This document shows, piece after piece, positions 3,240 to 35,129 of a stretch of 37,474 nucleotides of DNA. The position numbers and the translations under genes are program-made. The stretch is from Perkinsus olseni (lineage: Eukaryota). The stretch covers positions 1 through 37,474 of the forward strand of contig JABANN010000339.1 in the NCBI GenBank assembly GCA_013115125.1, written 5' to 3'. Within the stretch, counting starts at the first letter, position 1. Every line of letters starts with the position of its first letter. A model generated the notes under the pieces. It was not told the origin of the DNA. It saw only the letters and a list, made by a program, of their open reading frames with translations, and did not search any database.

Positions 3240-5609
3240 TCAGTACGGGTTCGATCCGCGGCCTTGTCCCACTGAAACAATTGAGCATAAAAGGCCTAAT
3301 AACGTGGCGCGGTTACTACTGTTTCCACGAATCTGGCTAAGAGGCAAGCCCATGACTTGAGCGGCGGCCTCTTCTTCGCCCTTTTTAATCTGACGAACGA
3401 ACGAAACTCGAAAGACCATTCGATGGAAGCCTCCTCCTCCTCACCTGAACCTTCAGTCGCTTGCCAGTGTGAGTAGCGAAGCCATCCATTGTACGAACCG
3501 CTTGGACAGCACTCGGTACTTCGTTGAATGATACGAAGCCGTAACCCTTCGACTGGCTCGTCATGTTGTCGACTATGACCCTGAGAAGAACACCCAGCTT
3601 GCCGGGAACTATGATGTGGCGTTCTCAAAAGTACTTGGTGGTAGAGATGGAACCGCAAGATCCGAACTCTCTAGCAAGATCGGCGTCTCTCCACTCGGGC
3701 GGAATGTTGTAGACGAAAATGTTGGCTAAGACAAGCACGTGGTGAGCGACGCCTCGAGCTGGACTGAGCTATTCACCTCCAAGGGGGCCATTCTTCGGGT
3801 GCTGCTGTGCTCTGCCGGACTGCTGACCAGACTGTGACAAGTTCATCTGACCATACCCTCCTCCCGGTCCGAAATTACTGCTCTGCGGCGTCTGCTGGAA
3901 CCTGAGAAAATCGGCCTTTGGTTGGGACATCCCTCGAGCGGGAGGGATCCTCAAACGAACCTTACCCGCCACTCTGGGGCTGCTGCTGTTGCTGTGGAGG
4001 CGGTGGGGGCGGTCCCATGTTTTGGAACTGAGAGGCCGAGAACGCTGCCGACCGAGACATGCCCAGCACCCCAGCTCTCACCTCGAAAGGCACTTCCCAT
4101 TGCGTCTGCCCGGTCTGCGAGTTGTGGTAGTAGTAACGACCGTCAGGGTGGTTAAGGTACTCCGTCCACGGCCCAGCTCGACGAGGTTGAGCTGCTGCGG
4201 GTGGTGGTGGCTGAACCATCAACGCTGCTCATAATAACACACTGTAGTAACCTACAGGTGGCTGGTATCCGCCGGAACGGCTTTGGAACCCTTCTCGCGG
4301 TCCTCCGCCCATCTGAGGCATCCTGTCGAATCCTCCCTGATCCGAAGTGCGGAAAGATCTGTCTCCACCGCCCTGGAACCGATGAGAGTCCGTCTCCTGT
4401 TTATGCGCCAGCCTAACAGCAGTTCACAGATTCTGTTGGACTCCACTCGAAGGAAATTCCCGCCCACCTCTGCTCTCTAGTGTCGGCGCATTTGACGGTG
4501 ATCGGATGGGGCTCGGCGGGGAAGGTATATTTGTCATTCAAAGCTTCAATGGCATTGAGAGCATCGGACTTCTTAGAGTATCTCACGAAGGCCGCCTTGT
4601 TGCCGCTGGCCCTCTTCGACTCCAGACTGTAGGCCTCGGTGACGTTACCGTACCTTCCCCAGAAAACTTACTTCTCTCCAGAAAGCGGGTATCGAGTACT
4701 CACTCATCAAAAATTTGTTTAAGCTCATCGTTGCTAGTGGCCGGTGGTACCTGAACGAGAACATGAAAACCCAATCAACCCACGGAGGCACAGCACTTAC
4801 ATTGCCGACAAACAACTTCTGGGAGAATCCTTCAGTGTCGTCGGGGAGACCAAGTCTCTCGGGCTCGCCATTAGCAAACTGCACTTGAATGAAGCCACAT
4901 GCCTGACAATGAGACAAGAGATGCCACCTGTTCGGCTCGTGAGCGACTTCACACTGACGAGACACGTAACGATGATGCTCAATTGAAGCAATGACAAAGT
5001 AAATGACCTTACACAGTAACGAAGGAGGGAAGATAGAGAGATGGGTAGTACATCGTCAGCTTTATACGTTCCATTAAGAGATTTGATGGCAGTAGCGGCT
5101 TCATGGACAGCACCAAACTTAACGAATGCACAGCCTGGAGGAATACAACAACATCAACATCAAACTGGCTGCTGTGGCAGTGAACGGACAACTCGATGAT
5201 GATGACGATGCTACACTGCCAATCATGGGGTAACATAGGGCTGGTTAACAGACACTAAGGACGCTAGTGAAGGGGGTAGGGCAAAATCATCTAGTCACCG
5301 ACAAACAATCGAGCATGGCCTCGTCACGGGTGAGGCTTGGACCGGTGAGATGAGCTACCTGTCTGTTGCTTGCCGTTATCTTTGGGCCTGATCAGGCCGA
5401 CCTCCTGGACTTCGCCATACCTAAGCGAATCAAGTCATTTTGAGCTGAAGCACGTTCCCGACTGTTTTTCGATGAGATGGAAGCGTTTGCTGCTGCTGCT
5501 GCTGCTGTTAGACTTACGCCTCGAAGAGATCACGAATGTTCTGCTCTTTCCAGGAGACAGGAAGCTTGCCCACGAAAAGGCGTACTGGGATGCGGATCGA
5601 GTCTGCCAT
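3240..5609 (-). CDS. CELF/Bruno-like RNA-binding protein (RRM-RRM-WW-RRM), multi-exon
   Basis: ATG 5609 MADSIRIPVRLFVGKLP (RNP2), GCAFVKF (RNP1); IQVQFANGEPERLG..KLFVG RRM2 with AAFVRY; WW domain WTEYLNHPDGRYYYHNSQTGQTQWEVP; third RRM GPLGANIFVYNIPPEW..RGYGFVSF; ends ..SNPY* at 3240, like the CELF ..PY* terminus. Confidence 0.88.
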
Positions 5610-5751: not shown

Positions 5752-6456
5752 ATGGTTGTCAAGGGAATCGCTAAGAAGGCCTCCAAGAAGGTCGAGAAGC
5801 AGACCTTGAAGTTCGTTGTCGACTGCGAGAAGCCCGTCAACGACAACGTCATCGATGCTGAGTCTTTGGTAAGTTGGTATGGGACTGGAGTTTGGGCTTT
5901 GGTCGTTGAGGCTATGGTTGATACTTGAATGATGAGACCTATTCTTTCCCCGTATGATCAAGATGATTATACCACAGCTGACTAATTCTTTTCTGACCGT
6001 ATCGAACCACTAGCAGCTTCCTTGAGCGAATCAAGGTTTCACTTAACTAGTTCTTAAACTGTTCTTTTTCAGGCCGAGTTCTTCCGCAACCGCATCAAGG
6101 TTGAGGGCAAGACCGGTAACCTCGGTGAGCGCGTCACTGTCGCTAAGACTGGCAAGGCCAAGATTGTCGTCACCGCCGCTGCTCCCTTCTCCAAGCGTTA
6201 CCTCAAGGTAAGCCCAGGGCCACCTTCCCTGGAATCGCCGCGCTAGTCGTGTGCGTTTTCCTAGTAGGTATGCGAAGCGCTCTAGGATCTGCGTCTGTGG
6301 TCGGTTTCTTAATTAGTGATTGCATGTTTTTGTTTTGTGTAGTACTTGACCAAGAAGTACTTGAAGAAGCAGCTCCTCCGTGATTTCTTGAGGGTTGTCG
6401 CCAGCAACAAGAACACTTACGAGCTCCGTTACTTCTCCATCAACCAGGAAGAGTAA
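5752..6456 (+). CDS. RPL22: 60S ribosomal protein L22 (eL22); exons 5752-5868, 6073-6207, 6343-6456
   Basis: Spliced translation [57 protein letters not shown]...[38 protein letters not shown] with GT-AG introns. Confidence 0.97.
5925..6000 (+). ncRNA. Intronic box C/D snoRNA in RPL22 intron 1; probable snR190/SNORD12-like guide to LSU rRNA
   Basis: Box C ATGATGA 5929-5935, box D CTGA 5993-5996; guide TTCTTTCCCCG before a D'-like ATGA is complementary to conserved LSU CGGGGAAAGAA; the D+5 rule lands on the third G of GGGG (yeast G2395 equivalent). Host intron is 204 nt versus ~50 typical. Confidence 0.8.
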
Positions 6457-6942: not shown

Positions 6943-7023
6943 ATGCCAATGATGATCTAAATCAATTATCACATACGTTAGAACGGATTGTAAGTGATTG
7001 ATAACTTCCTATTACTGAGGCAT
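6943..7023 (+). ncRNA. Box C/D snoRNA with LSU guide overlapping that of 6571-6660
   Basis: Stem ATGCC/GGCAT; C ATGATGA 6949-6955; D CTGA 7015-7018; internal CATACGTTAGA identical to the guide in the first cluster member; C'-like GTGATTG. Confidence 0.8.
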
Positions 7024-11666: not shown

Positions 11667-14600
11667 TCATGCAGCCTTGGACTCTGAGCTGGACTCAGCT
11701 GCCTTTGCCTCGAGGTAGCTGGCGATGTACTCGATGGGGTCGTCCGGGTCCACATCGCAGAGCTCCATCAGCCCCTCCGTGAGATCAGGGACCACATACC
11801 TGTCGATCGAGGCAACAGGGCCGAGAGGGCGTGCCTGCATGCAGCTCTACTCTATAAGGTATTCTCTCAGAGGCTTCTTCTTGAGCTCGGATACCTTGAA
11901 GGCACCTTGAGAGCCCCACAGGGGTGAAGGCAGGCTACCACTACCTCCGCCCTCCACCGGGCAATGGCCGCCTCCCGCTTCACATCGAGGGCAGCACGCT
12001 GGCCGGCCAACTCTGCCTGCTTGGAGCTGCTTCTTCTCACCTCTGCCTGCGAAGCGCTTCACTATAGAACGGGAGTCATTCGACAATCACTTCCTCTGCA
12101 GCTCGGCGACTCTCCTCCTCTCGAGCTAGCACTTGGCGAACCTCATTAGACACCTCTTGCTCGGTGGGCAAGAAGTTGAAGGGTCTCCCTGACTCGAGCC
12201 CCTCCACAGGAACACAGCAGGCCGTCTCACCATGCCTCTCGATGTACATCCGCAAGGCCTCAAAGCGCATAAGCTCCTTTAGAGGGCTGCCAACCGTGGA
12301 CTCGATGACGTCTAATGTAAGTACATCCACCCCGAGGTCCTGTAGTGATCCTAACTGGCTATCACCTGCCTCCTAAGACTACCTGTAGGAGGACGTCGCA
12401 GTCGTCTGCCAGGCCTCGACGGGCAGCTACGCGGTCCTGTTCCTCGCCACCGGCCACCTGATGTGCCGAGTTCAACACAAAGCGCGAGGATAACCCTTGT
12501 ACAGTGAAGTGGATTGCGCTGTGAGGGATGCGGCCTCGGGAGGGCACCGGCCTGGTTCTAACGGGTGGAGACTGCGCCGCCTCTGAGTCCCCCTCAGCAA
12601 CCTCCTGATCAGCGGTAGCAGCACTCAAGTTGTAACTCCATGGAGTGTCCATCCTCAAGGTACTGTACCTCGTCATCAACTTGCTCGTCATCGCCCTTCT
12701 TGTCAGACTCAATAGGGACCTCATCGAAGAAGAAGAGAGGGCGTGCTTCGTCCAATGTCGACGGATACCTGGGCGGAGGCCGCAGGTTCGATCCCCAGCC
12801 GCGCCTTTTACTAACCCGTCCAGAACCCATCCCCGGTATTTGCATTGCTTCCTGTCGATCCCAAACCGCCGCACTGCATCAGCTTTCTCACCCTCGGTCG
12901 CCGGTGCCTTCGCCTCTCCTCCTGACCAACACACTGCGACCCGTGCCGGGAGGAACTCTCCCACCTGCTTGCCCCTTGCTCAGCTCAATCGCAGAGTCCA
13001 GGCTGACCAGCGGTATCTGCCAAGACCGTCACGTTCACTCCTTCCGATACGAGGCGGCTACATTGTAGTGCTCAGCGATTCTCTTGGCGAAGTGGGACTT
13101 CCCACATTTAGGAGCGCCGTAGACCACCACGCGAATCTGAGCATGCCAAGGAACTGCGAAGACTCAGAGTCCTCCTTCTCACGGGCTCAGCCTTGCGAGC
13201 TTTGCAGAACTCGGCGGCTACGTCCTCTACTCGACGAACGAGGCCTTCCCGGCAGTGCCTGTGTGCCCCGCTGGTCAACGGCCATATCCCAGAGGGGCCC
13301 ACCAAGGGAAGTCTGGGTGCCTCAGCAGCTCCGACTGCCGCATTCCCAGATCCAGCGACAACCATGAAGGGCAAGCTTCAACCAAAGATTCCCTAACATG
13401 CGCGACTAGGTACCACGTGCCTCCTGCACGCATGCACAAGCAGGCACGGGAGACGATCGCCCACCTGATCGGTTCGTTGGGCTCGAGACCCAGGATTTCC
13501 TTGGCGACGGCCCGAACGACCTCTTCTTGAGTATCATGGGAGTCATCAACAGCCATGATGTATTTATCTGCCATCGAAGGGATCAGGCGTGATGACGCCC
13601 TACCACTACCCAAGTGGGGGTGCCTAGGGCCCTCCTCCACGACCCCTCCTTGCTCCCCCTCAGTCCCCTCTCCGTCCACTGCGGGAGGCTGAGCCCAGCA
13701 GGGTGAACTCCAATACAGGACGAGTAGGTACTACCTTGAAGGGGTCTTCCATTTCAGCTGCCTCAGCCAAGGCTCGAGCGTACAGAGCCTGCACCACAGT
13801 CGAAGCGACAACAAGGAAGCTCCGAGGAGGTCCACCTCGACGGTCCGGGCAACATCCACTATGTGAACCATCGGTATACGATTTCCCCCAGCCCCGCAGA
13901 TCCGGATTGACTCCTTCCGACCGATCCAGGCCTCCCTAAATGAATCTCGAAAAGATTCAACCGGCATACTGCATTCTTACTTGAACAAGTCATAGAAGAT
14001 CCCCGGGAGCTCCCCACGACCGTAGAGCACCCCATGGCATACAACGTACGAGGTGACCTGAGACCAGCCGCCTCGGCACGGACTGAGGGGAGTCGCTGCA
14101 CACATTCTCCTTATCATTGAGGGCAAGCGCTCTGTCCTCGAGAGCCTTCCACTGGGTCGGGCCACCAGCGGAGGGGCACCGCGCTTCGAAGTGGTCCACA
14201 TTAGTCGGTGATAGCTCTGGAACATGGTGATGGCGAGAAGGAGCTTCCTGGGCACTGTACTACCGCTGCCATCCTCAGTGCTGGTGCCACCCCAGCCCTC
14301 TACACTGCTGAGCATAACAAAAGTGAAGGGCCGGGCGAAGCGATGTTCCTGACACTGTACGTGGGCCTCGGAGACTCTGCCGCAACAGCACCTCCGCCCT
14401 CATGAGGATGTTCTCCACCTCCCAAAGGTCGCACTCGGTCACGCAATACACCGCCATATCACAATCCATCACGGCCTTGGCGAGTATCTTAGGTTGATCA
14501 TGGCAACAAAGAGAAAGCCGGGCCGTACAGCGTCCTACCTTTGGTTTAGTCTTGGGTAGAATCCTTTGACACGCCTTGGGCTTCCCTTCAACCTGACCGG

Positions 14601-14787
14601 GCCAACCTCATCCTACTACCAATGTTGCACCCATAACCCCATTCTCGAGAGGCCCAGGCTCGCCTGCCTCCGTCCCGATGATTCGATTGGGCTCTGCTTC
14701 CTGTTCTTTCGTCTGCCGAGGACGCCTCAGGCTCCTGCAGAGTATCCGCCCCAGTGGGGCATTGACATTATTGATGAAAATGCGCAT
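11667..14787 (-). CDS. AK7: Adenylate kinase 7-like flagellar protein (N-terminal Rossmann-like domain, AK domain, C-terminal Dpy-30 motif), multi-exon
   Basis: ATG 14787 MRIFINNVNAPLGR; YVVCHGVLYGRGE; GAGGNRIPMVHI; P-loop VVVYGAPKCGKS (~13120-13090); CKYRGWVLDG; KKPLREYLIE|YVVPDLTEGLMELCDVDPDDPIEYIASYL; TGA 11667-11669. Confidence 0.88.
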
Positions 14788-15195
14788 CTAAGGTTGAAGC
14801 GTGGCTGGTATCCAGACCTTGATTATTGACTAAAAGCTCATAACTCGACACCCAGAGGTGCAGACAGGATATCAGTCTCTCGACTACAAGGCAATGGTGG
14901 CTATATTATCATTATGATCATCATCATTTTCATCTTCCTCTCCCGATCGGCGGCGGCGTCGTCGGCCCCATCACTACACCTTCCACGCTGGCGGACAATA
15001 TAAGACACAGAAGGAGACTGCCGACGTCTTTGGACGCGGCGGCGGCGGCGATGGCGGCACTACGGCGGCAAGATGAGAATAGCGATAAAAGAATAATACT
15101 ACGTTTCGGACATGTGGCGGTGGTAGAGAAGGGGGGCAGCACCAGCAGCTTCCCACTTGCCGTCCTCTTAGAATGCTGCTCTTTAAGAATGCTAT

Positions 15196-16446
15196 TTACG
15201 TTGCAGTACTACCACCACTAGACTGAGCTGGATGTGATGGCGTCGTCGATAACCCTAGATTGTGATGGTCCTCTCCCGCCACAGGAGCCGCCGGCGCCAC
15301 CGACCCATCAGTACTCGAGATACCATCCCCGCCAGTGGCAGCTGGTATTGAGATCTCCACCCCGTCCTCCTCGCCCCTACCCGCAGAGGCAGCTATAGCG
15401 GCTGCCTGCTGCTGCGTGAACATGAGCTGTTGCAGCACGCTCAGTTGCTGAGCTTGAAGGACCGACATCTGGTGAATGTTGGCGGCCAGCAGGGCCTCGG
15501 TGTCCCTATCACCAGCACCAGGACCGCCCTCCTGTCCAGTAGAGCTGCTCGACCCTTCTCCAGCAGACGATGGGCCCATCTCGAGGACCGAGCTGCCATT
15601 GTCCGTTCCAGGAGGGGCAGGCCAGGCCGCAGCAGCAGCGGCAGCCACAACAGCTGGGTCGGCCTTATCGTCGACAACACCGGGCTGGGAGGCAGCAGCT
15701 GCTCGCTGTAAATCTTCATACTCCTCAGAGTCCCTTATCCTATTTTGTTTCCGCGGCTGCTTCGGTGGCGGAGGGAGCCCCGGCTGTCTGTTCGGACGTT
15801 TCCGCCGCTTCATAGCCCGTACCATCTCGAGTACTTCATGATGAGGTCTCGTATTCTTCAGCATCGTCATGTGCAGCCTGTCGCTAGCTGCCTGCTGTAT
15901 GGTATGCCGGACAGGCCCCTTAAGCTGCTTACGTAGCAACCTGACGCTCGCCACCCACCCGCGGCCTTCACGACACACCCCTCGAGGGAGCACCGAGTCA
16001 TCTTCGGGCCCCAACTGTTGGATCGCGGCCAAGTCATGGATAGCTTGCACGATCTCACCCGGGTTGTCAGCAGTCGCCAGGTAGTCAGCCCAGCCCGGAG
16101 GAAGCCCGGCAGCAGCTGCCATCGCCGCTGGGCTCTCGGGTGACAAATGATGGGTAGTAGCTCCCGGTGGTATCGGAGGCGGCGGCGGGAAGAATCCCGG
16201 ACCGAATCCTGGCGGGATGGGCGGGAAAACCATCGCCGAGGGATCAAAGGCGGCCCAAGGCGGAGGCATCCCATCCCTGCCAGGGAACTCGAAGGCTGGG
16301 ACCATGCCGCTGGCAGCCAGGGCTTCCTGTTGGGCCTGGTAGCCTTGGTCGTCCTCGGGTTGAGGCATGATGGCCGAGGGGTCGAAGACAGCACTGGCCG
16401 CTGCTGCGGCTGATCCGCCATCTTCGGCAACACTTCGTTCAGCCAT
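15196..16446 (-). CDS. Intronless Pro/Ala/Gln-rich protein with a single AP2-like DNA-binding domain; probable transcription factor
   Basis: 423-codon ORF, first ATG 16446 (MAERSV); LPRGVCREGRGWVASVRLLRKQLKGPVRHTIQQAASDR resembles a divergent AP2 fold, followed by NLS-like KRRKRP. Confidence 0.7.
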   Translation of the reverse strand: MAERSVAEDGGSAAAAASAVFDPSAIMPQPEDDQGYQAQQEALAASGMVPAFEFPGRDGMPPPWAAFDPSAMVFPPIPPGFGPGFFPPPPPIPPGATTHHLSPESPAAMAAAAGLPPGWADYLATADNPGEIVQAIHDLAAIQQLGPEDDSVLPRGVCREGRGWVASVRLLRKQLKGPVRHTIQQAASDRLHMTMLKNTRPHHEVLEMVRAMKRRKRPNRQPGLPPPPKQPRKQNRIRDSEEYEDLQRAAAASQPGVVDDKADPAVVAAAAAAAWPAPPGTDNGSSVLEMGPSSAGEGSSSSTGQEGGPGAGDRDTEALLAANIHQMSVLQAQQLSVLQQLMFTQQQAAAIAASAGRGEEDGVEISIPAATGGDGISSTDGSVAPAAPVAGEDHHNLGLSTTPSHPAQSSGGSTAT

Positions 16447-16647
16447 GGTGATTATTGAGGTAACCACAGATGAAGGGTGTCGAAGGGTAATAAGGTGGCA
16501 GAACTAATTTCTGAAGGAGTGGTATGAATATTATTACACAAGCCCAACCAAAGGCAACCAATGCCCAAGAATGGAAGCAGTAGGATAGAAGACTTTATCT
16601 TACAGTATATCACCAGCATCCACAGGGACGTTAAAGGGTGGTACCGC

Positions 16648-17376
16648 TTACACACCGTGGACCTGGAAATTCGAACCATCTTGGAAGCTTCCATGATCGC
16701 AGGAATAGCCTTGCCTTGACGAAGTCCTTCTCAGCGATGCCTTCGTGGACTAAGAAGTCTCCTACTAGTTTCCGCTTATCACCCTGGATCATAATGACCT
16801 TGCCGAACTCCGGGTCCTCAGTGATGCTGCCGTTGCAGTTGAACTCCTACATCGAGGACGCTCTTCCGCGGCGGACCGACCTATTCTGTATCTTACCTTC
16901 TTGAAGTGCTTGAGTATCTTTTTGGAACTGAACTGCTTGGGCAAGCCCTGGATGATGGTCAAACTCTTCCTACCATTCCGTTGCTGATTTCGGATATCTG
17001 GATACACGCAGAGCGTCAACGGATCAGCCCATCGTACGGGGCCTTAGAGGCCCTTATTGAGAGGGCCCCGGCACGCCCCTTCGCCTTACGACCATCACTC
17101 CCGCGCGCCGCGAATTCCACCGTACCAAAACTTCACCCCTTCGACGGAACGAACAGCCCTGTGGTCCGAGTCTATTTCCTACCACTTGACGCCTTTCGAG
17201 CATACCGAACGCGTGCGAAGGTCGCTGTCACCAAGCGGCGGCCATGGCGCCCAGTCCAACGGTTTCAAAGCGACTCTGGCCCGGTCGGTTCCCCCCACAG
17301 GCCCCCTATTACGGATATAGTTCTGCTGGTGGTCATCATCCTGCTGGTCTCCGAATAGCTCCTGGGCGGGGTTCAT
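16648..17376 (-). CDS. SUI1: Translation initiation factor eIF1 (SUI1), 4 exons
   Basis: MNPAQELFGDQQDDDHQQNYI|HIRNQQRNGRKSLTIIQGLPKQFSSKKILKHFKK|EFNCNGSITEDPEFGKVIMIQGDKRK...FVK|VHGV*. Confidence 0.95.
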
Positions 17377-17633
17377 TTGCTACGATGGTACAAGACAGAG
17401 GACAATGAAGGAGCTCCTTAACCAGGCGTCGTTCGCGTGCGTGCAAAATGCACGAAGACAGCAGCGGAGCGAAGCGTTGCGCGTTTGCTCATTTTCATCT
17501 TTTATCGTCTAATCTTGCGCCGTAGCACTATGAAAGCCTCTTGAAGGCATGGCGCCTGCGAACATCGTTCTCTTGCCCTGACGTGGCACGGAGGATGTCG
17601 TTAAATGCCCACGCTCCGCCTCAGCCTTTATGG

Positions 17634-24393
<6,760 letters not shown>

Positions 24394-24655
24394 TTGCTTC
24401 TGTTTTGTCAAAGCCTCCGAGCGCATACTTAGCACCGGTGGCCAGCATCGATTTTTTAAGTTGATTTATCATCATCGTACCATCACGATCGTTTCGCATG
24501 TGGCAAGCTTTCTCTGTGACCTGAGTTGCAGTATGGGAAAGAACGTCATCGCCCCCATCATCCAAAAGGCGAAGACTTGGAGCGTATAAATTTTCTTTCA
24601 CGAGTGGAAGTTAGTCATGACCATTTCGATCGGGCAGAGGTTGTTGTTTTCTAGC

Positions 24656-25411
24656 ATGAACAGCGAGGAGGAGATCGAACTATTCGAGTACTCTCGAAGG
24701 GGTAACTACGATGAGGTGCATCGGCTGCTGGTCGTCGACAAGTCAGTAAAGCCCGACGACTACGAGGCCTACGATGGCAGCACGCCCTTCCTCATGGCCT
24801 GTCGGAACGGTCATGCTGATATCGCCAGGTGAGGCCACAGGCAGGCACTTCCATCACTCCCAGTCCACAGGTTACTCTTGGAGCATGGAGCCAACATCGA
24901 TGCTAGAACTGAGGATCTGTCTAACTGTCTGGTAATCTACTTGAGAGGGATGGCGATGGTGTGTGCGAATTCGAAGTCCAACGCCTACGACAGTACGGCT
25001 TAGACTAGCACCACCGACGTGCAGGCTGGTTAGTTTAGCCTGTTGAATGGGCTCTGTTCATCAACTGAGTGGCGATGATGAGGAGTGCTGCAGATACTAG
25101 CGAGTGCCGGCCGGTCCCCGGACACTGTGAAGCTTCTGTTGGAGAAGGGGGTGAATGTTAATTACGCTAATGAGGACGGTGAGTTCATTATGTCCCTGCG
25201 GATTTTATGCTACCGGCACAGGTGTAACCGCTTTGGAGCTCGCCAAGGAGCATAATAGGAAGGAGGTCGCCAATCTCCTCCGAGGTACTCATGGTGGGAT
25301 ACTCGCTCCGCTACCGTCGCAGCAGGTGCCGGCGCGACCGAGCCCGATAATAACCGAGAACTGCCCCCCGCCAAACCGAGTGAGAGGTGGCAGTATGGCG
25401 CCTTTGAGTGA
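24656..25411 (+). CDS. Small ankyrin-repeat protein, 5 exons
   Basis: DGSTPFLMACRNGHADIAR|LLLEHGANIDAR..|..VKLLLEKGVNVNYANED|GVTALELAKEHNRKEVANLLR|GAGA..AFE*. Confidence 0.9.
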
Positions 25412-25627
25412 GGCCTGCTTCATTCGAGTTCCTTGTTTCACAACATTCTTAGGGTTTCGCGTTGAACAAGGTTAAATACCGATACGGACGGTCGCGTCGC
25501 TCCGCTACATACCGTGAGAATCCGTGACGGGAGTGAGTTCCAGCCACGTCCCCACATGCCTGACATGGTACTACTACTATGGTATACTGAAACACAATGG
25601 CTGCTCCCACCGCGGTACCGGAGAATA

Positions 25628-28600
25628 CTACAGAACGCTTTGGCTGATTCCAGCAACGAACATAGTAAATAACGGACAGTAGTAATAACGTATTGTACTG
25701 GGCCCCTCACATGGTAGCGAATGCACCACGCTGATGGTCGAAGGAAATCCTCGTCTCCCGGGCATCTCGAACAGGAGCCTTCGACTCGAGGATGCTGCGG
25801 TACTCGAAGCGATAAGCCTATCGGAGACAGAGTTAACACTCCCGAGTGCCATCCACTTGACGCCTACCTTGTCTCCCTGTGTGCTGAGCTGTGCTTGATG
25901 CAAAGCCATGTTGTACTCGAGTAGTGACTCCTGCTGGGCCTTCGAGAATATGTCCCGATGCTGATACCTGTTGGGAGGGTGTCGGAGGTCCTGATTAAGA
26001 CAGGCAGGCACTTACACTTGTTTCATGGTCTCCTTAGCATCGCTGGACCTGCCTGGGCGGTGGCTGGCTCGTACCATAGCCCCAATCGATCGGACAAACT
26101 CCGCCCGTAGCCGACGTTCCAGGGTCCTACAGGAAAGCATGGATCTCGAGGGAAAGGCGAGCGCGTCCCCACTCTTCATTGGGCTGGGTCCATCCCCCTC
26201 TCGACGACGTTATCGCTAGGAGGTTGGGTTTCGGCTCCTTCTCGTCATCATCTTCATCCTCACTGGTCGCCTCCGACTTCAAGCCGTCAGGAATGTCATC
26301 CTCCTAGAACAACAATGAATCGAATCTTAGGTCGAACCAGTGCCGGAGACGGTAAAGGCGGCAATAAGACCCAATGGGCCGTGCCCGAAGACGTTGAAGA
26401 AGGTCGAACCAATGCTGATGATGGCTTCAACGACTACGGTCCGTAGCACTACCTCGAGGCCTTCGCCATCGACGTTCTCCTCTTCCTCCTCTCCATCAGT
26501 CGAGTTCTCGCCTGACGGGCTGGACAGCGGGTCCGAGTTAAGGTTGCGCCACTTGGTCTCCTTCGAGAGCATCTGCCAGCGCCCCAATTCAATGGTCCAT
26601 CAGCAGCAGCCGTCACCTTACCAGCTCAGTGAGGTCCTTGCATGCCTTAGTGAAGACGAAGTTGTCGCTCGAATAAAGACTGTTGCGTTTCTGCACCGTG
26701 AAGTCCCAGACGTCGAATATCGACAGAACTCCCTCCGGCGCCTCCAGAACCCCATCAGGGATGTTAGTAAAGCACCGCTGATTCAGAACGACCTGCGCAG
26801 GCACAATCACCGCCCGGTAGCTTAGACCCTCCTCACCCCCTTCACGATTTTCTGGGCGACCTCCCTGTTCTCCCTCAGCGTCTCGCTATTACAGTGATAG
26901 ATGTCGTGCTCATGAGGGGCGTCCCTCTCGTAGGTGAAGGTCTTCAGCATCCTGTGAAGGGCCATCGAAAACAGTCCACAGCCGCCAGAAACCTACGGCT
27001 TCGTGTAAGGGGCCGTCACCACTGCGTCGACACAGTGGAGGATCTCCCGTCGCTCGATCGTCGGCTCTCGCATGAATTTGTTGAACTTCTCCAAGAGCAG
27101 CTTGCACACCAGAAAGTACCTATCGCCATGGCCATCGGGTCACCAGCCCTTCACGGTCCTCCCTCTCACTTCTCGTGCTTGGCCATCCCTTCTCGCATCC
27201 TCGCGAACTGCGCCGGCCAGTCGACCTCGGACATCTCTAAAGAAACGTACAGTCACCACCGCGAGCCTCTCCCCACCCTACTGGTATGATGAGGCTCCTC
27301 CTGGGTCTCGCTGGACCCCACCGACTTAGCCGATTCATCCTTCCCCTTCTTCAACGGTGGTTCTCCTTCCCCCTTGTTCGAAGAACTGAGGCTCATCAGC
27401 ATCCCCATGCCAGGTCTGTGGGGGCCCACCTTGACGATGGCTCTTCCTTCTTCTTCACATCCCCAGTATGCACCGTACCATCGGCTACCACAGTATGCAT
27501 CAGATCGACCTGGGGAAAAATCATGAAAAAAGGCGGAGCGAAGCTAATCCTACCCGTCCGGCCGACGATGAACCCCCAACCTCGCTCTCCTCTCGGCGAC
27601 GCTTAGCGATCTCCTTGGACATATGGTTGAGCCTTCAACTCACAAGCGTCATCAAACGCGTCTGACCATGCCCACTTACATGCCATCGAGCTCCCGATCT
27701 CGCCGCGACCGGCCAATAAGTTGCTCATCACCGCCGTACAACTGAGGGCAGCACTCCCAACGACGAATGCTGTGCTAAGGCGACAGTACCTTCTTCTTCC
27801 TGTCGGCCTCGAGGATGGAGAACGCCTTGTAGACTCTGGCGAGATGGCGTTTATCCCCAGCAGCCTTGTACCTGGGAAAAAAGGAGGGCAGTCCATTCGA
27901 CCTAGAACGACTGCTTCTACCTGTGCTTCAAGCTCTTGGCTCGGTCAAGTATCTTCTCCCACTCAGCATCATAGGACCTGAGGTCACGACATTAGCGGTG
28001 CCAGAGGGAGGGAGACCGTACAGGTTGAGGGCCCGATAGGCGTCCTTCACTGGAGCTGTGAGCATGGATACGACGATAAGAGACTGAGGGACCTCTTTAG
28101 AACCACTCCCACCGTAGCGAACACGACAATCCATCAGAGACATCGGACAACACGTTAAGTTGCCATCATAACAGCCCTAGTTAAACACAGCCTTCGTGAC
28201 CACGCAAGAGAGCGCTGGTCCATCAGCCAAGGTTAATAGTGGCCCTCTTCCGCAGGACTTGTCGCAGGCGGCCCTGAAGTGTTTGGGGCCGGTAGAGCGC
28301 AGCCTCCACCACGACACCCACCATCCTCTGAGCCTCATCACGGTCGTCCTCATGCGTTTCTCGCAGATTGTCGAAGAATTTCTGATAGTCGGTGGACCGT
28401 CTGGGCCGGCGGCGATGTCCCACAGCCAACGGCGAGCACTACTTACCTGCCTGACTGAGGACGGCTAGACGAGGACACTAAAGCTCTGATGGAGATGATC
28501 TCCGGTCGGCGTGGGCTCGGTGAGGTCTGAGGGGGGGGGCACCGTCGAGTGAGCCTCTGATACCGCATGGAGTGGAAAGCTGAGGCTTCTATGCCACATG

Positions 28601-29264
28601 GCCGCAGAGGCAGTTCAGCGAAGATGATTCGCACTGAGGCCATGCAATGGGTGCCGAGCCACGGACTCGACTGATTTACGGTAGACGAGAACCCCAGGAA
28701 GAGCCATACCGTTTCTGATAACATAAAGGCCTAGAGTTCCTCCTAGTCCAGCCAGTAAATATAAGAATCCCCTCGTTAATCCGCGAGTCACAATGATCAC
28801 CACCCCAGATGCTCGGTATTACTCTAATCCCCGTTCTGCTATAATCCATCCCATCCTCATCCTCATCGTCATCCTCCTCCTTCGCCGTCAAAAGAGCGCT
28901 AAGCCCTTGCTTGTTGAGCGCCGTCATGATAGACGCCTGACAGAGGCCACTCAGAGCGAGCCAGGAGAAAGAGGATCCGCCCTACGGCTATGCCACTCTT
29001 GCGAGGGGGCGGAGGGCAGAGGCTCGGCCGAGGGAGTTTGGATGCACTATCGGGCTCTTTCCTGCAATAATACAGAACTGACTGCGCGGGAGCCCAGAGA
29101 CGAGGTGACGGTGTGGTTAATACTCGAGAAGCTGTCCCACTACAGTCACGCTCAACCTCTGGTCTGTATGGCAAAACTGAGACCCCGGATAGCGGTGATT
29201 GGTCCCCCTACTTCAATAGACGAGCCACGTCCCTCTCTATGTCGGCCCGGTATATGGTAGCCAT
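25628..29264 (-). CDS. Unidentified multi-exon protein(s)
   Basis: Protein-like minus-strand exons bounded by short introns (e.g. MSEVDWPAQFARMREGMAKHE, YFLVCKLLLEKFNKFMREP, WQMLSKETKWRNLN, acidic runs); no family recognised; boundaries approximate. Confidence 0.5.
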
Positions 29265-29369
29265 ATGGCACTGGATGGACAAACTGAAGACCGCCCACTT
29301 ACCCCAGGGAACTGCCAACACAACCCCTCAATAAGGACAGCAAAAATATTCCCACAGCATGCCTCGGCT

Positions 29370-30263
29370 TCAAGCCGACATAAACCGCATGAGGCGTCGT
29401 CGGTTGGGCGTAGGCCCGTTACCCTCACACGCCAGATAACAGCCGCCGTCCTTTAACTGCTCGACCCTGGTGATCCGATCTAACTTTTGGTCATAGAGCT
29501 CTCGAATAGCCCCTCCTGTGGGCTTCAAGATCTTCGACAACTCCGCGTAGATGGCCTTGAGGGTATACCGACCGAGGTTGGTTTTCAGGTAGTAGCGGGT
29601 ACCGTCGTCGTGGCCATCACCATTACGGAAGATCCACAGGCACCTGGCTGACTCGAAGCTGGCGGGTCGTTTCCACTGCAAAATAGGGTGCTTCCGTGTA
29701 GGGCTCACCGGCCGACCAGCGCGACCGTGAATGCCTCCCTGTGCAAGACCCAGGCCGTGACCAGTGGCGGGGTCGAATCTTTCCCTCGAGCGCACAGGGA
29801 AGAATCTGTGGTCAGTGAGTCGGTTAAAGATATCCTGCTGGCCGAAATACTGAGAATAATAAGGACTAGTACATCCCATGTCACGTGACAAAGAGTGCTC
29901 CAGGAGATGGCGATGCCGAGCCACTGGGTCTCCCCGATCAGCCCGACCGCCGCCAATGTGACCATCGAGAATGCAACCCTTATGACCCGGCCCGATATTC
30001 TCAACAACCTTCGCCGTCTCAGGGGTCCTCGGAGGGTGGTCGTGGACCCCACCACTGTCGATCGTCCTCACTGCGTCCCCCCCTGTGGCCACTTCTACCA
30101 CCTGCTTTTTGTGGACTGTAACTCCATCAGCATCACTCACAACGACATCTTCGTGCTCCCTATGTACTACCCGATCCGCCGTGTGACCACCGCCTCCTGT
30201 CGTAGTGGCCAAATTAGGAGTTTTGAAAGGGTTGGTATGAGGCCCACCTGGAGATGCTGACAT
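29370..30263 (-). CDS. Apicortin-like protein (partial p25alpha/TPPP domain + doublecortin domain), intronless
   Basis: DIFNRLTDHRFFPVRSRERFDPATGHGLG matches the partial p25alpha motif; RCLWIFRNGD...LKPTGGAIRELYDQKLDRITRVEQLKDGGCYLACEG is a DCX domain; disordered N-terminus. Confidence 0.85.
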   Translation of the reverse strand: MSASPGGPHTNPFKTPNLATTTGGGGHTADRVVHREHEDVVVSDADGVTVHKKQVVEVATGGDAVRTIDSGGVHDHPPRTPETAKVVENIGPGHKGCILDGHIGGGRADRGDPVARHRHLLEHSLSRDMGCTSPYYSQYFGQQDIFNRLTDHRFFPVRSRERFDPATGHGLGLAQGGIHGRAGRPVSPTRKHPILQWKRPASFESARCLWIFRNGDGHDDGTRYYLKTNLGRYTLKAIYAELSKILKPTGGAIRELYDQKLDRITRVEQLKDGGCYLACEGNGPTPNRRRLMRFMSA

Positions 30264-30605
30264 GCACGTTAAGTGGAAATAAGACTACCAACGGTGCAGC
30301 TGACTGTCTCTTTCCATCGCCCAACGACCAGAACCTTTTCCGCTACCAAAACAGCAAGTATATGATATTACTTTCCAAGGGGCGGTGGAGGTCACGCGAA
30401 GATGGTAAAGCAATGCCGAGTGGGTGCCTCTAGGCCTCGTTGGTGGAGTTTCATCGGGAGACGGGGTCCGGCAGCGAATCTTGGAGAATCTTGCACAACT
30501 TGGATTTCCTTAACGCTAACTCTTCGAGCGTCGCGTAATCACCACCACACTCGTTAGGAGTTTACTTTCTCCTTCCGACTCCTCCGTACCTTAAACGTCT
30601 TCTCA

Positions 30606-32522
30606 ATGGGCCTTGACGAGCACGATAACGAATTAATCTTTGAAACCAGGTAAAGGTCGATTTTATGCTACCGCCCCACCATCAACCGATTCGTAGCTTT
30701 TCATTGGTCACTTTTCAGTGAGGATGTGCAAGTACTGGACAGCTTTGATGCACTTGGCTTGAAGGAGGTGCGCCCCCAGGGACGGCTTTTCATTCAGCGT
30801 CCGCTCTGTTGCCCCTTGGTCTCCTCGGTCGTCGTATAGTAGTCTTGATGGTGCTATACAGATGGAGACAAGGGGACGCTTTCTTTATAGGTATTAGCCG
30901 GGAACGTCTCGCGGTATCTTAGGTCGATCCTTGCTCGCCCCAAGTCCTTCTTTTAGGACCTTCTCCGCGGTATCTACCAGTACGGCTTCGAGCGGCCTTC
31001 GGCAGTCCAGCAGCGTGCAATCCTGCCCATCGTCAAGGGAAGGGACGTGGTCGTACAGAGTCAGTCCGGTAAGTCGGCTCTCAGTGGAAGAAGCCATCAA
31101 CACCGCCCTTTCCCAAGGTACGGGTAAGACCTGCGTCTTCGCCTTGGGAGCCCTACAAACGGTGAAGCCTACGGAGAGGGACCCTCAAGTAGGTTCTAAC
31201 CAGGAGACCCTCCCTTCTTCCCACCCTCCCCTCTAGGTTCTCATCCTCTCCCCCACACGTGAATTGGCCGAGCAGAGCCAGAAGGTCTGCCTCGCCCTTG
31301 GGGACTACATGAACGTCCAAGTAGACTGGCCCGTCCAATCACAGCGCGAGATCGGCCCTATTAGGTCCATTGCTGTGTTGGTGGAAAGAAGCTAACTGAC
31401 GATATCCGGGCCCTGGAGGCCGGCGTACACATTGTCTCTGGCACCCCCGGTCGAGTGTACCATATGATATCCCAACGCCATCTGTCGACGAGGCATCTCA
31501 AGATGCTGGTCCTCGATGAGGCTGATGAGATGCTCGACAGGGGCTTCAAGGAACAGGTATAGCGCGGCGTAGTGCTGCAGCGAGGAGGGGAGGAATTTAG
31601 CCTAGGTCTATGATATCTACCGTTACCTGCCTCCGAGCACTCAGTGCGTACTGGTGTCGGCCACCATGCCCAACGAGATCCTGGAGATGACCAACAACTT
31701 CATGAACAACCCCTTCAGGTAGCAATACTATGCATGCGGGTTCACTTGCTGATGTTGTTGCGTCTAGGGTTCTCGTGAAGCGTGATGAGTTAACGCTAGA
31801 AGGCATCAAGCAGTTCTTCGTGGCTGTCGAGAAGGAACAGTGGAAGTTCGACACTCTTTGCGACCTGTATGATACTCTCACGATCACCCAGGCCGTCATC
31901 TTCTGCAACACCAAACAGAAGGTAAGGGGTATCTTAGGTCGACCCGTGTCATTGATACACTTCAGGTCGACTGGCTGACCAATAAGATGAGAGAGGCTAA
32001 GTTCACCGTTGTATCCATGCACGGCGACATGCCTCAGAAGGAGCGAGATGCCATCATGCAAAAGTTCAGGTTGGCTGTCCCTTTCGGTGCTCAGTAGTAC
32101 GTACTGCGAAGTCCTTCAGATCCGGCCAGGCCCGAGTGCTGATCACGACCGACATCTGGGGTCGTGGTCTCGATGTACAGCAAGTGTCTCTGGTCATTTG
32201 CTACGATTTGCCGAATAATCGTGAATTGTAACAAAAAGGCGGAGCGAAGCAGCTGCTGGTAGATCATACCCCTCGTTGTAGGTACATCCATCGTATTGGT
32301 CGTTCGGGTCGTTTCGGTCGTAAGGGCGTTGCCATAAACTTCGTGAAGGAGGACGACGTGAGGATCCTCAGGGATATTGAACAGTAATATCACAATACTT
32401 TCTCGTGCCGCTAATTGTCACTCGAGAGAAACGAGCAGCGTATCGATCTTGCCGCCGCTCGCTTCAGGTATTACTCCACCCAGATCGATGAGATGCCCAT
32501 GAACGTAGCCGACCTCATCTAA
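30606..32522 (+). CDS. EIF4A3: DEAD-box helicase eIF4A-III (exon junction complex core), many short exons
   Basis: [116 protein letters not shown]; the 'TTDxW' and 'KVDWLT' motifs favour the eIF4A3 paralog. Confidence 0.95.
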
Positions 32523-32724
32523 GGAGTACCGGTGATGGTGGTCTCTGGAAGGGTGTACGTCTCATTATCATCATCAGCAGTAGTAGTAGTAACATAAAGA
32601 AGGTATTATCGAGAGGACAGACAAACAATAGCCTACCCTTTCCATCTCGCCTCTTGCCTTGCGTTACAGTGGGCCAGCATGGAAGTAGACGATATTGTAG
32701 TTTTTTTGTTGGACCTTCCGCGCG

Positions 32725-32997
32725 ATGATTATCGAACTGTGTGTGGGGATCATCGTAGGCATTGCTGTTGGTACTTATCAAGGGGATAGTAAGCCATCAC
32801 TCAGCGCGACCTCCGCCAAGACCCCTCCCTTCAGAATTCAAGCCCTGCTTCGACCCCTGTATAGAAGGAACCAAGACCATGAAGGACAAGGTTGTTGGAA
32901 AATATCAACAGTAATACTATCATCATCGTCGGGGCTTCTTAGTTGTTGGCAGCAGTTTCCTCTTGTTCAGATTCCGGGACTCCAGGGCCACCCGTAA
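32725..32997 (+). CDS. Predicted 48-aa single-TM microprotein; exons 32725-32788, 32835-32890, 32971-32997
   Basis: Splicing GTAAGC..TTCAG and GTTGTT..TTCAG introns gives MIIELCVGIIVGIAVGTYQGDKFKPCFDPCIEGTKTMKDKIPGLQGHP* with consistent phases. Confidence 0.65.
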   Translation: MIIELCVGIIVGIAVGTYQGDSKPSLSATSAKTPPFRIQALLRPLYRRNQDHEGQGCWKISTVILSSSSGLLSCWQQFPLVQIPGLQGHP

Positions 32998-33132
32998 CTA
33001 GCTGCGTTAAGGGGTTGATGCGTGAGCCAGTTAGTTGATTCTCGTACCAATCTCGAAGATCCGTTTCTCCTCTTCGTCGTCTTGCGTCTATTATTACCGG
33101 TCTATCGGGGTACGGTTTGTGTAGTTAGTGTT

Positions 33133-35129
33133 ATGCCAGCAAAGCAACCATCCAGTGATCATCACGCCACGCAGCCGGAGACCCCAAAAGTCCGTCGGAG
33201 GCGCACCCGCGGGGAGGAAGTGCCGAGTACCGGACAGTCGGGGAAGGACTTGCTGTCTCAAACAGAACCTGATGATGATTCGGAGTGGGACAGCTCTCGA
33301 GGTGAATCTTGATGGTCATCTTAGTGACACACATTTTCGTCGCTTCAGAGAGGCCGATCCAGAAGCATGAGCTGCTCACGAGGGGAGAGCGAGACGAGAG
33401 GGCAGCGGCAGGGTCCAGTGGTGGACAGCAGGAGTTGTCAGCAGACAAGCCCATGGGTGATCAAGGGGGAGGGCCCATGAACGCTGGAAGCTTGTCACGG
33501 GTATTGTTTTCAGTCAGTAAAATGAAGAACCTGAGAGTCCGTACATTCTGGGCGGTGATTATGATCTCTGGATTCCTCCTCATCGTCGCCATGGGCCACT
33601 TCTACTGTTCACTACTGGTAGTGGGTTCGTCCCTCTGGGACTATCAGTCAGTGGTCTCCGTCAGGTGCTAGGTATCGCGGCGGGAATGTTCCAGGAGATT
33701 TGTATGCTTAAGCGCAATAAGGAGAAGGATCTCCAGCTGCCCCTGTTCTATTCCCTCCGATGGTATCTTTTCTTCGTCACTGTCTTCTACGGGTAAGCTC
33801 CCTCTGCCAGCTGCCGCTGGTCCTCAGTCGGTATACGCTCAGGTACAAGCGTTTCATGACGGACCGATTCGACCGTCTGGCGATGGTGTACCCTTCAATA
33901 CACTTCATTGTGAAGTACCATGGAGTTATCTCATACACCCTCCTAGTCATCGGCCTTGTAGCCTTCGTACTCAGTCTGCGGAAGTACGTCACGCCAGCTT
34001 CAACCTAAGATTCTCCTCCCACCTCCCTCACCAGATACACGCTGCGGTATCAGTTCGGACAGCTAGCCTGGACCATCGTTACACTCATCATAGTTGTGGT
34101 AAGCAGCATGGGGCCTCGTAGGCAAACTGACCCCCTTACCAGGTCCAAGGCATTGCCATGACAGCAAACATCTACAACGGGCTCATCTGGTTCTTCCTAC
34201 CCACCTCTCTGGTCATCGTCAACGACATCTTCGCCTACCTCTTCGGCTTCTTCTTCGGGCGTAGGACTCTACTGCGTTCAAGCCCCAGCACGGTGGCTCC
34301 TCTTCGTCAGATCACCCCCTTATCAAGCTGTCTCCGAAGAAGACCTGGGAAGGGTTCATTGGGGGCTCCGTCGCGACCATGATCTTCGCTATAAGTACGT
34401 CATTCTGCGTCAATCGGTCTTATCATTTTTCCTCACCTTCAGTTTGGTGTTCCTTCCTTCAAAAGTACGAGTACTTCACCTGTCGACAGGAGGAGATCGT
34501 CTTCAAGCCCTTCGTCTACCCTCATTGCACCCCGGATGAGATTTATACCGTCTATCGAACGTATCCTGATGAGAACACCCCCTAAAGAATGCACCTCCAC
34601 CGCTCCTGGCAGATACACCATCCCGCCGTTCGGAATGCAGCTGCAACTGACGGACATGCAAATCCACGCTCTGGTCGGTAGCCCCTCGTCCTCCTTCTTG
34701 ACCAATGCTTGCTTGAGCTTCAGGTTCTGGGTGTCTTCGCCTCGTTAGTGGCTCCCTTCGGTGGGTTCCTAGCTTCAGGTTTCAAGCGGGCGTTCAAGAT
34801 CAAGGACTTTGGAGATTCTATCCCGGGCCATGGTGGCCTTACTGACCGTTTCGATTGCCAAGTAAGGACCACTACGCTTCTGATTTTGGCAATCTCTTCA
34901 CAGGTTGTGATGGGGATGTTCACCTACGTCTACCTCTCCAACTTCGTCGTTGCGGATAGCGCTGCGGCCTTCACCAATCTCCTGGAGAAGGTCATGCAGC
35001 TGTCGGACACGGAACAATTGCAGTTGTAATACCAGGAGGGATGGGGACTGTTCGCGCAATAACACGTGGCCTCGCAGGTTCGAGCTTCTTGGGGATGGCC
35101 TGAAGTCCAGGGGAGTCGTCCAGGGCTAG
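33133..35129 (+). CDS. CDS: Phosphatidate cytidylyltransferase (CDP-diacylglycerol synthase), eukaryotic type, multi-exon
   Basis: [75 protein letters not shown] 35127-35129. Confidence 0.95.

Follow-up and report, generated by a model that had tools for sequence, protein, structure and literature searches.

Perkinsus forms the lineage sister to the dinoflagellates, in which introners are rampant. The introner filter of Gozashti et al. (2022, PMC9860276), as given in the part of that paper drawn on here, requires a sequence likeness that comes near both splice boundaries and excludes introns that are alike in a subportion only. In Amoebophrya, according to the excerpted text of Farhat et al. 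(2021, PMC7789003), introner elements have inverted repeats of 8 to 20 nucleotides (nt) that join the intron ends, direct repeats of 3 to 5 nt over the boundaries, and non-canonical splice sites. Here, we analyzed a 14-bp word, TCRACCTAAGATWC, that recurs in the introns of unrelated genes on a contig of Perkinsus olseni (JABANN010000339.1); the whole stretch of 37,474 nt, which makes up the entire contig, is called the window below. The copies form two subfamilies with ragged, partly common flanks, and in two genes the sense AAG of the word is used as the 3' splice site. We tentatively read the word as a small dispersed DNA repeat of mini-introns, the retained core of which would serve as a branch-site and acceptor module.

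A 14-bp word recurs in the window well above chance

The chance level for the word was taken from 100 shuffles of the window that preserved dinucleotide composition. Exact TCRACCTAAGATWC was found six times in the window and in none of the 100 shuffles, which upholds the excess over chance claimed by an earlier note on this DNA. Every coordinate and strand that this note had listed for the six copies was right, namely, 14484(-), 18543(+), 26322(-), 30914(-), 31929(-) and 34000(+). With up to two mismatches, there were eight matches versus 0.64 expected by shuffling. The two additions were 13378-13391(+), with one mismatch, and 14784-14797(-), with two, the latter recovering a variant that had been reported at the AK7 ATG. 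With up to three mismatches, the count was 11 versus 6.94 expected. The 14-mer family is made up of six perfect and two near copies; beyond two mismatches there is no excess over chance and no decayed tail. The 9-mer core of the word, ACCTAAGAT, is the most repeated 9-mer of the window outside trinucleotide runs.

Chance, compositional bias, or an assembly or adapter artefact is hardly conceivable as the source of the word. Apart from the empty shuffles, the half-words by themselves are just 2- to 3-fold enriched, the word-bearing introns are cut out precisely in RNA contigs from four runs, and one copy supplies a used acceptor. The recurrence of the word is real, and we found nothing known that explains it. 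In metagenome scans, the A-type 22-mer described below had no match, and a scan for relatives of a neighboring lineage-specific gene returned 137 pattern matches, none of which was confirmed.

All six exact copies lie in introns

RNA contigs from four public runs were placed on positions 14200-34199, and their placement was read from 15 of their 75 joints and 24 of their 72 loose ends. The intron placement of the six exact copies is given by these contigs for three, by NCBI gene models for two and by our own model for one. Relative to the host gene, four copies are in sense and two in antisense orientation, and the six word-bearing introns belong to five unrelated genes. The copies and their relatives are the following.

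18537..18558 (14-mer 18543-18556), plus strand: A-type copy, 22-mer CCAGCTTCAACCTAAGATACTC, forming the 3' end of PNO intron 18509-18552 (44 nt)
14482..14503 (14-mer 14484-14497), minus strand: A-type copy forming the 3' end of AK7 intron 14488-14538 (51 nt), AAG being the acceptor
33994..34015 (14-mer 34000-34013), plus strand: A-type copy, sense, internal to the predicted 51-nt intron 33984-34034 of the CDP-diacylglycerol synthase gene
26322..26338, minus strand: G-type copy, GGTTCGACCTAAGATTC, sense, within intron 26304-26452 (149 nt) of an unnamed minus-strand gene
30914..30930, minus strand: G-type copy, antisense, in the 189-nt eIF4A3 intron 2 (30768-30956), 29 nt from the acceptor
31929..31945, minus strand: G-type copy, antisense, in the 44-nt eIF4A3 intron 8 (31922-31965)
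14784..14797, minus strand (the AK7 strand): near copy with two mismatches, TCAACCTTAGATGC, its TTAG directly before the AK7 ATG
13372..13393, plus strand: relative of the A-type 22-mer with three mismatches, antisense, over the opening bases of an annotated AK7 coding exon (ESLVEAC...)

Two of the six exact copies, those in PNO and AK7, supply the AAG of the acceptor, as had been claimed before. A long open reading frame (ORF), 19091-21466, has pyruvate:ferredoxin oxidoreductase domains and 86-98% identity to P. olseni proteins. In the PNO copy at 18543, the AAG of the motif is the acceptor and ATACTC is exon. Exon pieces of the RNA contigs start at 18552 in two runs (X1 and X7), and the P. 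olseni protein P0003 also resumes at 18552, in agreement with this acceptor. For AK7, the join between KTKPK and ILAKAV is present in all five NCBI P. olseni models, which come from several isolates, and exact mapping of the NCBI protein P0121 (100% identity) gives the intron 14488-14538 ending in the AAG of the motif. This 51-nt intron is in frame and free of stops, so that the reading frame alone does not decide the matter. The 16-mer TCAACCTAAGATACTC is identical in the PNO and AK7 copies, and 6 nt of it reach into the exon. Since these are read in different frames, the likeness is one at the nucleotide level. The word flags unusual AAG acceptors, which gene predictors can miss.

The two other sense copies are internal to their introns, again as previously described. 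The intron around the copy at 26322 (26304-26452, donor GTAGTG) is omitted in both NCBI models, and the last base of this copy lies 18 nt from the acceptor. At 34000, the AAG is 25 nt upstream of the predicted acceptor; this intron comes only from our own frame model and from what we take to be a likeness to animal homologues, and the identity of the gene comes from the Pfam domain CTP_transf_1. The intron 26304-26452 additionally contains TGGTTCGACCT, which comprises the first seven letters of the motif and the upstream flank, twice (26329-26352 and 26401-26424, 72 nt apart).

The antisense location of two copies in eIF4A3 introns, reported in the same note, is borne out by the RNA contigs, which skip both introns in all four runs. 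Altogether, they skip 11 GT..AG introns of this gene, and the spliced product is a single open DEAD-box frame.

Among the relatives, the near copy at 14784 may, from its sequence, be a candidate spliced-leader acceptor. The relative at 13372-13393 agrees with the A-type 22-mer in 19 of its 22 positions (0 such matches expected), with one mismatch in the 14-mer, and is coding rather than intronic in all five models. There, the coding strand would have an in-frame stop but for a T-to-A difference in the core. The statement that the word is found at introns is thus correct for all six exact copies and does not extend to this one-mismatch relative, and intergenic DNA is scarce in the window.

Our catalogue of introns covers 14300-35100 and contains 63 introns, 15 of them supported by RNA, 4 taken from NCBI models and 44 predicted by us. 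Only region-limited gene models checked against RNA, NCBI proteins or Pfam were kept. Gene finders based on codon usage were discarded because they chained the whole window or found almost nothing, and a length-maximizing version invented introns. Introns make up 17.6% of this region (median, 47 nt; minimum, 37 nt), and the probability that all six exact copies are intronic under uniform placement is about 3e-5. No exact copy lies in coding sequence, though several frames of the word are open. In introns near the minimal length (44, 44, 51 and 51 nt), the word accounts for a third of the intron, which indicates that it is not a later addition to a finished intron.

Because intergenic spacers are very short, from a few dozen to a few hundred bases, "intronic" may here partly, perhaps largely, just mean "non-coding." Neighboring genes are only tens of bases apart, and a spliced-leader acceptor at 32699 directly follows eIF4A3. 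On the loose ends of the RNA contigs, the spliced leader marks trans-splice acceptors at 16512(-), 24636(+), 28085(-) and 32699(+).

The copies form two subfamilies, and further words are shared between introns

The A-type reads CCAGCT-TCAACC...WCTC, and its 22-mer is present in two exact copies and two copies with three mismatches, versus 0 expected. The G-type, GGN-TCGACC..., is represented by three exact copies. Pairs of copies share between 14 and 22 nt, meaning that the ends are ragged and not fixed. When eight copies were stacked with 40 nt on each side, conservation ended within about 6 nt of the 14-mer. Inside the word, the six copies show each of the four possible combinations of the variable positions R and W, and the other 12 positions are invariant in both sense and antisense copies. 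No companion motif (k of at least 7) was found within 150 nt of the copies, and none of the matches to the covariance models of Rfam 15 (E up to 1) overlapped a copy. Folding of the RNA of the six motif introns was no more stable than that of shuffles, with z values from -0.77 to +1.49.

Further long words recur between introns of the window. The exact 18-mer AAAAAGGCGGAGCGAAGC lies at 27527-27544, in the predicted 44-nt intron 27510-27553 of a minus-strand gene, and at 32233-32250, in eIF4A3 intron 10, in opposite orientations to the host genes; 12 of its letters recur at 17464-17475, upstream of PNO. The exact 15-mer GATTTTATGCTACCG is in sense at both of its positions, 25201-25215 (a 43-nt intron of a small ankyrin-repeat gene) and 30659-30673 (eIF4A3 intron 1). 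Overall, four pairs of introns have exact words of at least 14 nt in common, compared to a mean of 0.05 per shuffle and no more than 1 in any of 200 shuffles. Several long words, each present in a few mini-introns, would appear to fit copying between introns better than separate protein sites. The proposal that the word is a DNA-level element is in part strengthened by these data, namely, by the fixed positions in both orientations, the lack of RNA structure and the further shared intron words, one of which occurs in opposite orientations.

The core is a plausible branch-site or acceptor signal on either strand

The core CYTARG belongs to a class that is its own reverse complement, and CTWAG is found in the central CCTAAG as well as in its complement, CTTAGG. 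Among the pentamers enriched in intron interiors were TCAAC, found 9 times (1.8 expected), CTTAG, 8 times (2.6 expected), and CTAAG, 5 times (1.7 expected), CTWAG being about 3-fold enriched. CTWAG is present in 13 of the 63 introns; in 12 of them, it starts 27 to 50 nt from the intron 3' end. This spacing holds in the motif introns of 149 and 189 nt, in which a randomly chosen position would mostly be more distant, and the four internal copies of the word begin 27 to 39 nt from the intron 3' end. Judging from its letters, the core is plausible as a branch-site or acceptor signal in either orientation, which weakens any argument against a branch point drawn from orientation. It was on this ground that the earlier note had preferred a DNA-level element to a branch point, but the core reads CTWAG on either strand and is enriched at branch-site distance.

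These observations raise the question of a purely RNA-level signal, i.e., an extended branch-site and 3'-splice-site module read by the spliceosome or by an auxiliary RNA-binding protein. The palindromic core would account for both orientations, the AAG is the acceptor in PNO and AK7, TCAAC and CTWAG are intron enriched, and the internal copies keep their distance from the 3' end even in the two long introns. However, such a signal is quite improbable given that the word occurs in just 6 of the 63 catalogued introns, that sense and antisense RNAs differ outside CTWAG and yet the same 14 letters are kept, that the antisense copies have purine-rich rather than pyrimidine-rich sequence upstream on their own strand, and that the same introns hold other branch-like words. 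A general branch point would be present in most introns at a set distance; with 6 of 63 introns, the word is not a general splice signal.

A possible dispersed repeat or protein-binding site

If the word is a small dispersed repeat, it would be the surviving core of an element found in either orientation in the mini-introns of P. olseni. Its copies would have been made by a copying or insertion process at the DNA level, a claim that we do not extend to present-day mobility. Parts dispensable for splicing would have been trimmed away or would have decayed, and the CYTARG core and TCRAC would have been kept as a branch-site and acceptor signal on whichever strand is transcribed. We count in favor of this reading the six exact copies versus none in shuffles, all intronic and with no decayed tail, the descent-like flanks of the A- and G-types, the 16-mer common to PNO and AK7, and the further shared intron words. 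A word that marks copying would give a handle on the birth and the continued spliceability of 45-nt introns. It is unlikely, in our view, that the 14- to 22-bp unit represents the functional core of an intron-making or intron-remodeling mobile sequence, the smallest yet seen, that would insert either way, carry a strand-symmetric branch and acceptor signal and have seeded a sizeable share of Perkinsus mini-introns. If this were true, introner biology would extend to the Perkinsozoa, the sister group of the dinoflagellates.

Several points weigh against a dispersed repeat with a retained splicing core. All counts come from one 37-kb P. olseni contig, and most of the catalogued introns (44 of 63) are predictions of our own models. 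The intron enrichment includes the word itself, which contributes 3 of the 9 TCAAC and 4 of the 13 CTWAG. We found neither a target-site duplication or flanking direct repeat around the copies nor an inverted partner of the core near any of them, and the window holds no longer parent copy. Antisense copies keep all 14 letters, though a branch site would need CTTAG alone. Finally, two freely varying positions beside 12 fixed ones look more like a constrained, recognized site than like neutral descent.

This last pattern favors a different explanation, namely, a putative site for a sequence-specific protein that binds double-stranded DNA, with a regulatory or architectural role. Such a site would be intronic only because introns are nearly all of the non-coding DNA of a compact genome, and acceptor use would be a by-product. 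We regard this explanation as doubtful in itself and, given the pattern of invariant and free positions, as nearly as likely as the dispersed repeat. The 12 positions kept in both orientations, the two free ones in all four combinations and the sharp drop of conservation outside the core speak for a bound site, whereas the subfamily-linked flanks and the two further shared intron words suit copying better. Likewise, a bound site would be compatible with decayed copies not being above chance, with the lack of RNA structure, with the absence of exact copies from coding sequence despite several open frames, and with very short intergenic spacers such as that between eIF4A3 and the acceptor at 32699. 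On the other hand, no companion motif lies within 150 nt, the host genes (AK7, PNO, eIF4A3, CDP-diacylglycerol synthase and one unknown) have no common function, the distance to the gene start varies, and two of the six copies coincide exactly with a used acceptor. Promoters and chromatin signals are all but uncharted in this organism, and the word, if bound, would be its first known long cis-element.

Spliced-leader and tRNA sequences as possible origins

A relic of retroposed or mis-spliced spliced-leader (SL) sequence, in which the word would be a diverged fragment of the SL exon, was also considered. The letters of the SL were taken from the loose ends of the RNA contigs and from the accessible part of PMC9399869. 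In antisense, the A-type word can be aligned to the 3' part of the SL exon in 11 of 14 columns with one gap (p of about 0.01 versus shuffles, uncorrected for four tests), but the G-type is not significant (p = 0.11). Three of the four host genes are antisense to the only orientation in which the likeness exists; SL relics, by contrast, are sense copies at 5' ends. A relic would carry the SL 3' part in sense, shortly before an acceptor, but the sense word did not align with the SL (p = 0.34 and 0.99). Moreover, the six copies are mutually identical and yet have three differences from the SL, and the real SL acceptors in the window bear no likeness to the word. We therefore consider an SL relic very improbable. 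Compared with the Perkinsus SL exon and the relict spliced leaders that dinoflagellates have, as far as the accessible part of PMC9399869 describes them, there is a weak likeness of the antisense A-type, in the wrong orientation and position, and we do not count the word among them.

A transfer RNA (tRNA) origin was dropped as unproven: in a by-eye comparison, the antisense G-type resembled a T-arm-like fragment at 570-588 only if eight bases were deleted. T-arm-like words of tRNA (GGTTCGATCC with flanks) occur in the window at 570-588, 3246-3257 and 12777-12795, two of them with more tRNA-like sequence upstream. ARAGORN predicted no tRNA gene, and the words may be decayed tRNA-derived repeats. 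Small nuclear RNAs, transposon ends and telomere repeats are not known to have more than 6 to 7 letters in common with the 14-bp word.

Other features of the window

The NCBI model P0121 joins a 416-residue ORF, 15199-16446, to AK7 via a 465-nt intron, 14735-15199. RNA contigs from the four runs are unbroken over 14861/14912-16512 and stop there, and AK7 has its own ATG at 14787. The ORF and AK7 are probably separate genes.

Rfam gave five weak matches resembling small nucleolar RNAs (snoRNAs), all away from the word. Weak C/D-box snoRNA-like matches, below the gathering scores, are located at 5920-6003 and 6944-7022, in and beside the gene region of ribosomal protein L22e. One RNA-run contig has four extra letters, TTAG, after 24999, beside a CTTAG word where a 108-nt intron of the ankyrin gene is predicted to start; an allelic indel in an unspliced transcript is the probable cause. 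At the left contig end, positions 13-135 hold five or six tandemly repeated units of 20-21 nt.

Comparison with known systems

Among the papers listed by our search of the literature, with supplementary tables outside its reach, none was seen to describe this word or any intron motif of Perkinsus. The portions of text found to name both Perkinsus and introners describe no such elements in Perkinsus.

The chromosome breakage sequence of Tetrahymena is a long, exact and orientation-free signal in non-coding DNA. The word resembles it in being nearly invariant, non-coding, of about 15 nt and present on either strand, but its copies lie inside expressed and correctly spliced genes. To our knowledge, programmed DNA breakage has not been described in Perkinsus. 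In Trichomonas and Giardia, a fused branch-site and acceptor motif is present in essentially every intron and in one orientation. Two of the copies described here are similar to it in that the acceptor AG comes no more than 5 nt after a branch-like TCAAC, whereas the word occurs in about a tenth of the introns and on either strand.

The introner elements of Amoebophrya and the word are both repeated short motifs in introns, and both are found in Myzozoa. Unlike what the excerpted text of PMC7789003 reports for those elements, the introns catalogued here are GT..AG, and their ends do not pair with each other. Introners of the DNA-transposon type have target-site duplications or terminal inverted repeats, and none were found around the copies. 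In addition, the likeness between copies of the word spans 14 to 22 nt and does not extend to both splice boundaries, as the filter in the consulted part of PMC9860276 demands. By published criteria, the word is not an introner. Nevertheless, like the introners of algae, dinoflagellates and fungi described in that part of PMC9860276, it is a repeat with splice signals that occurs in both orientations in introns of unrelated genes, and where at least four introns in non-paralogous genes are called for there, the word is present in six introns of five genes.

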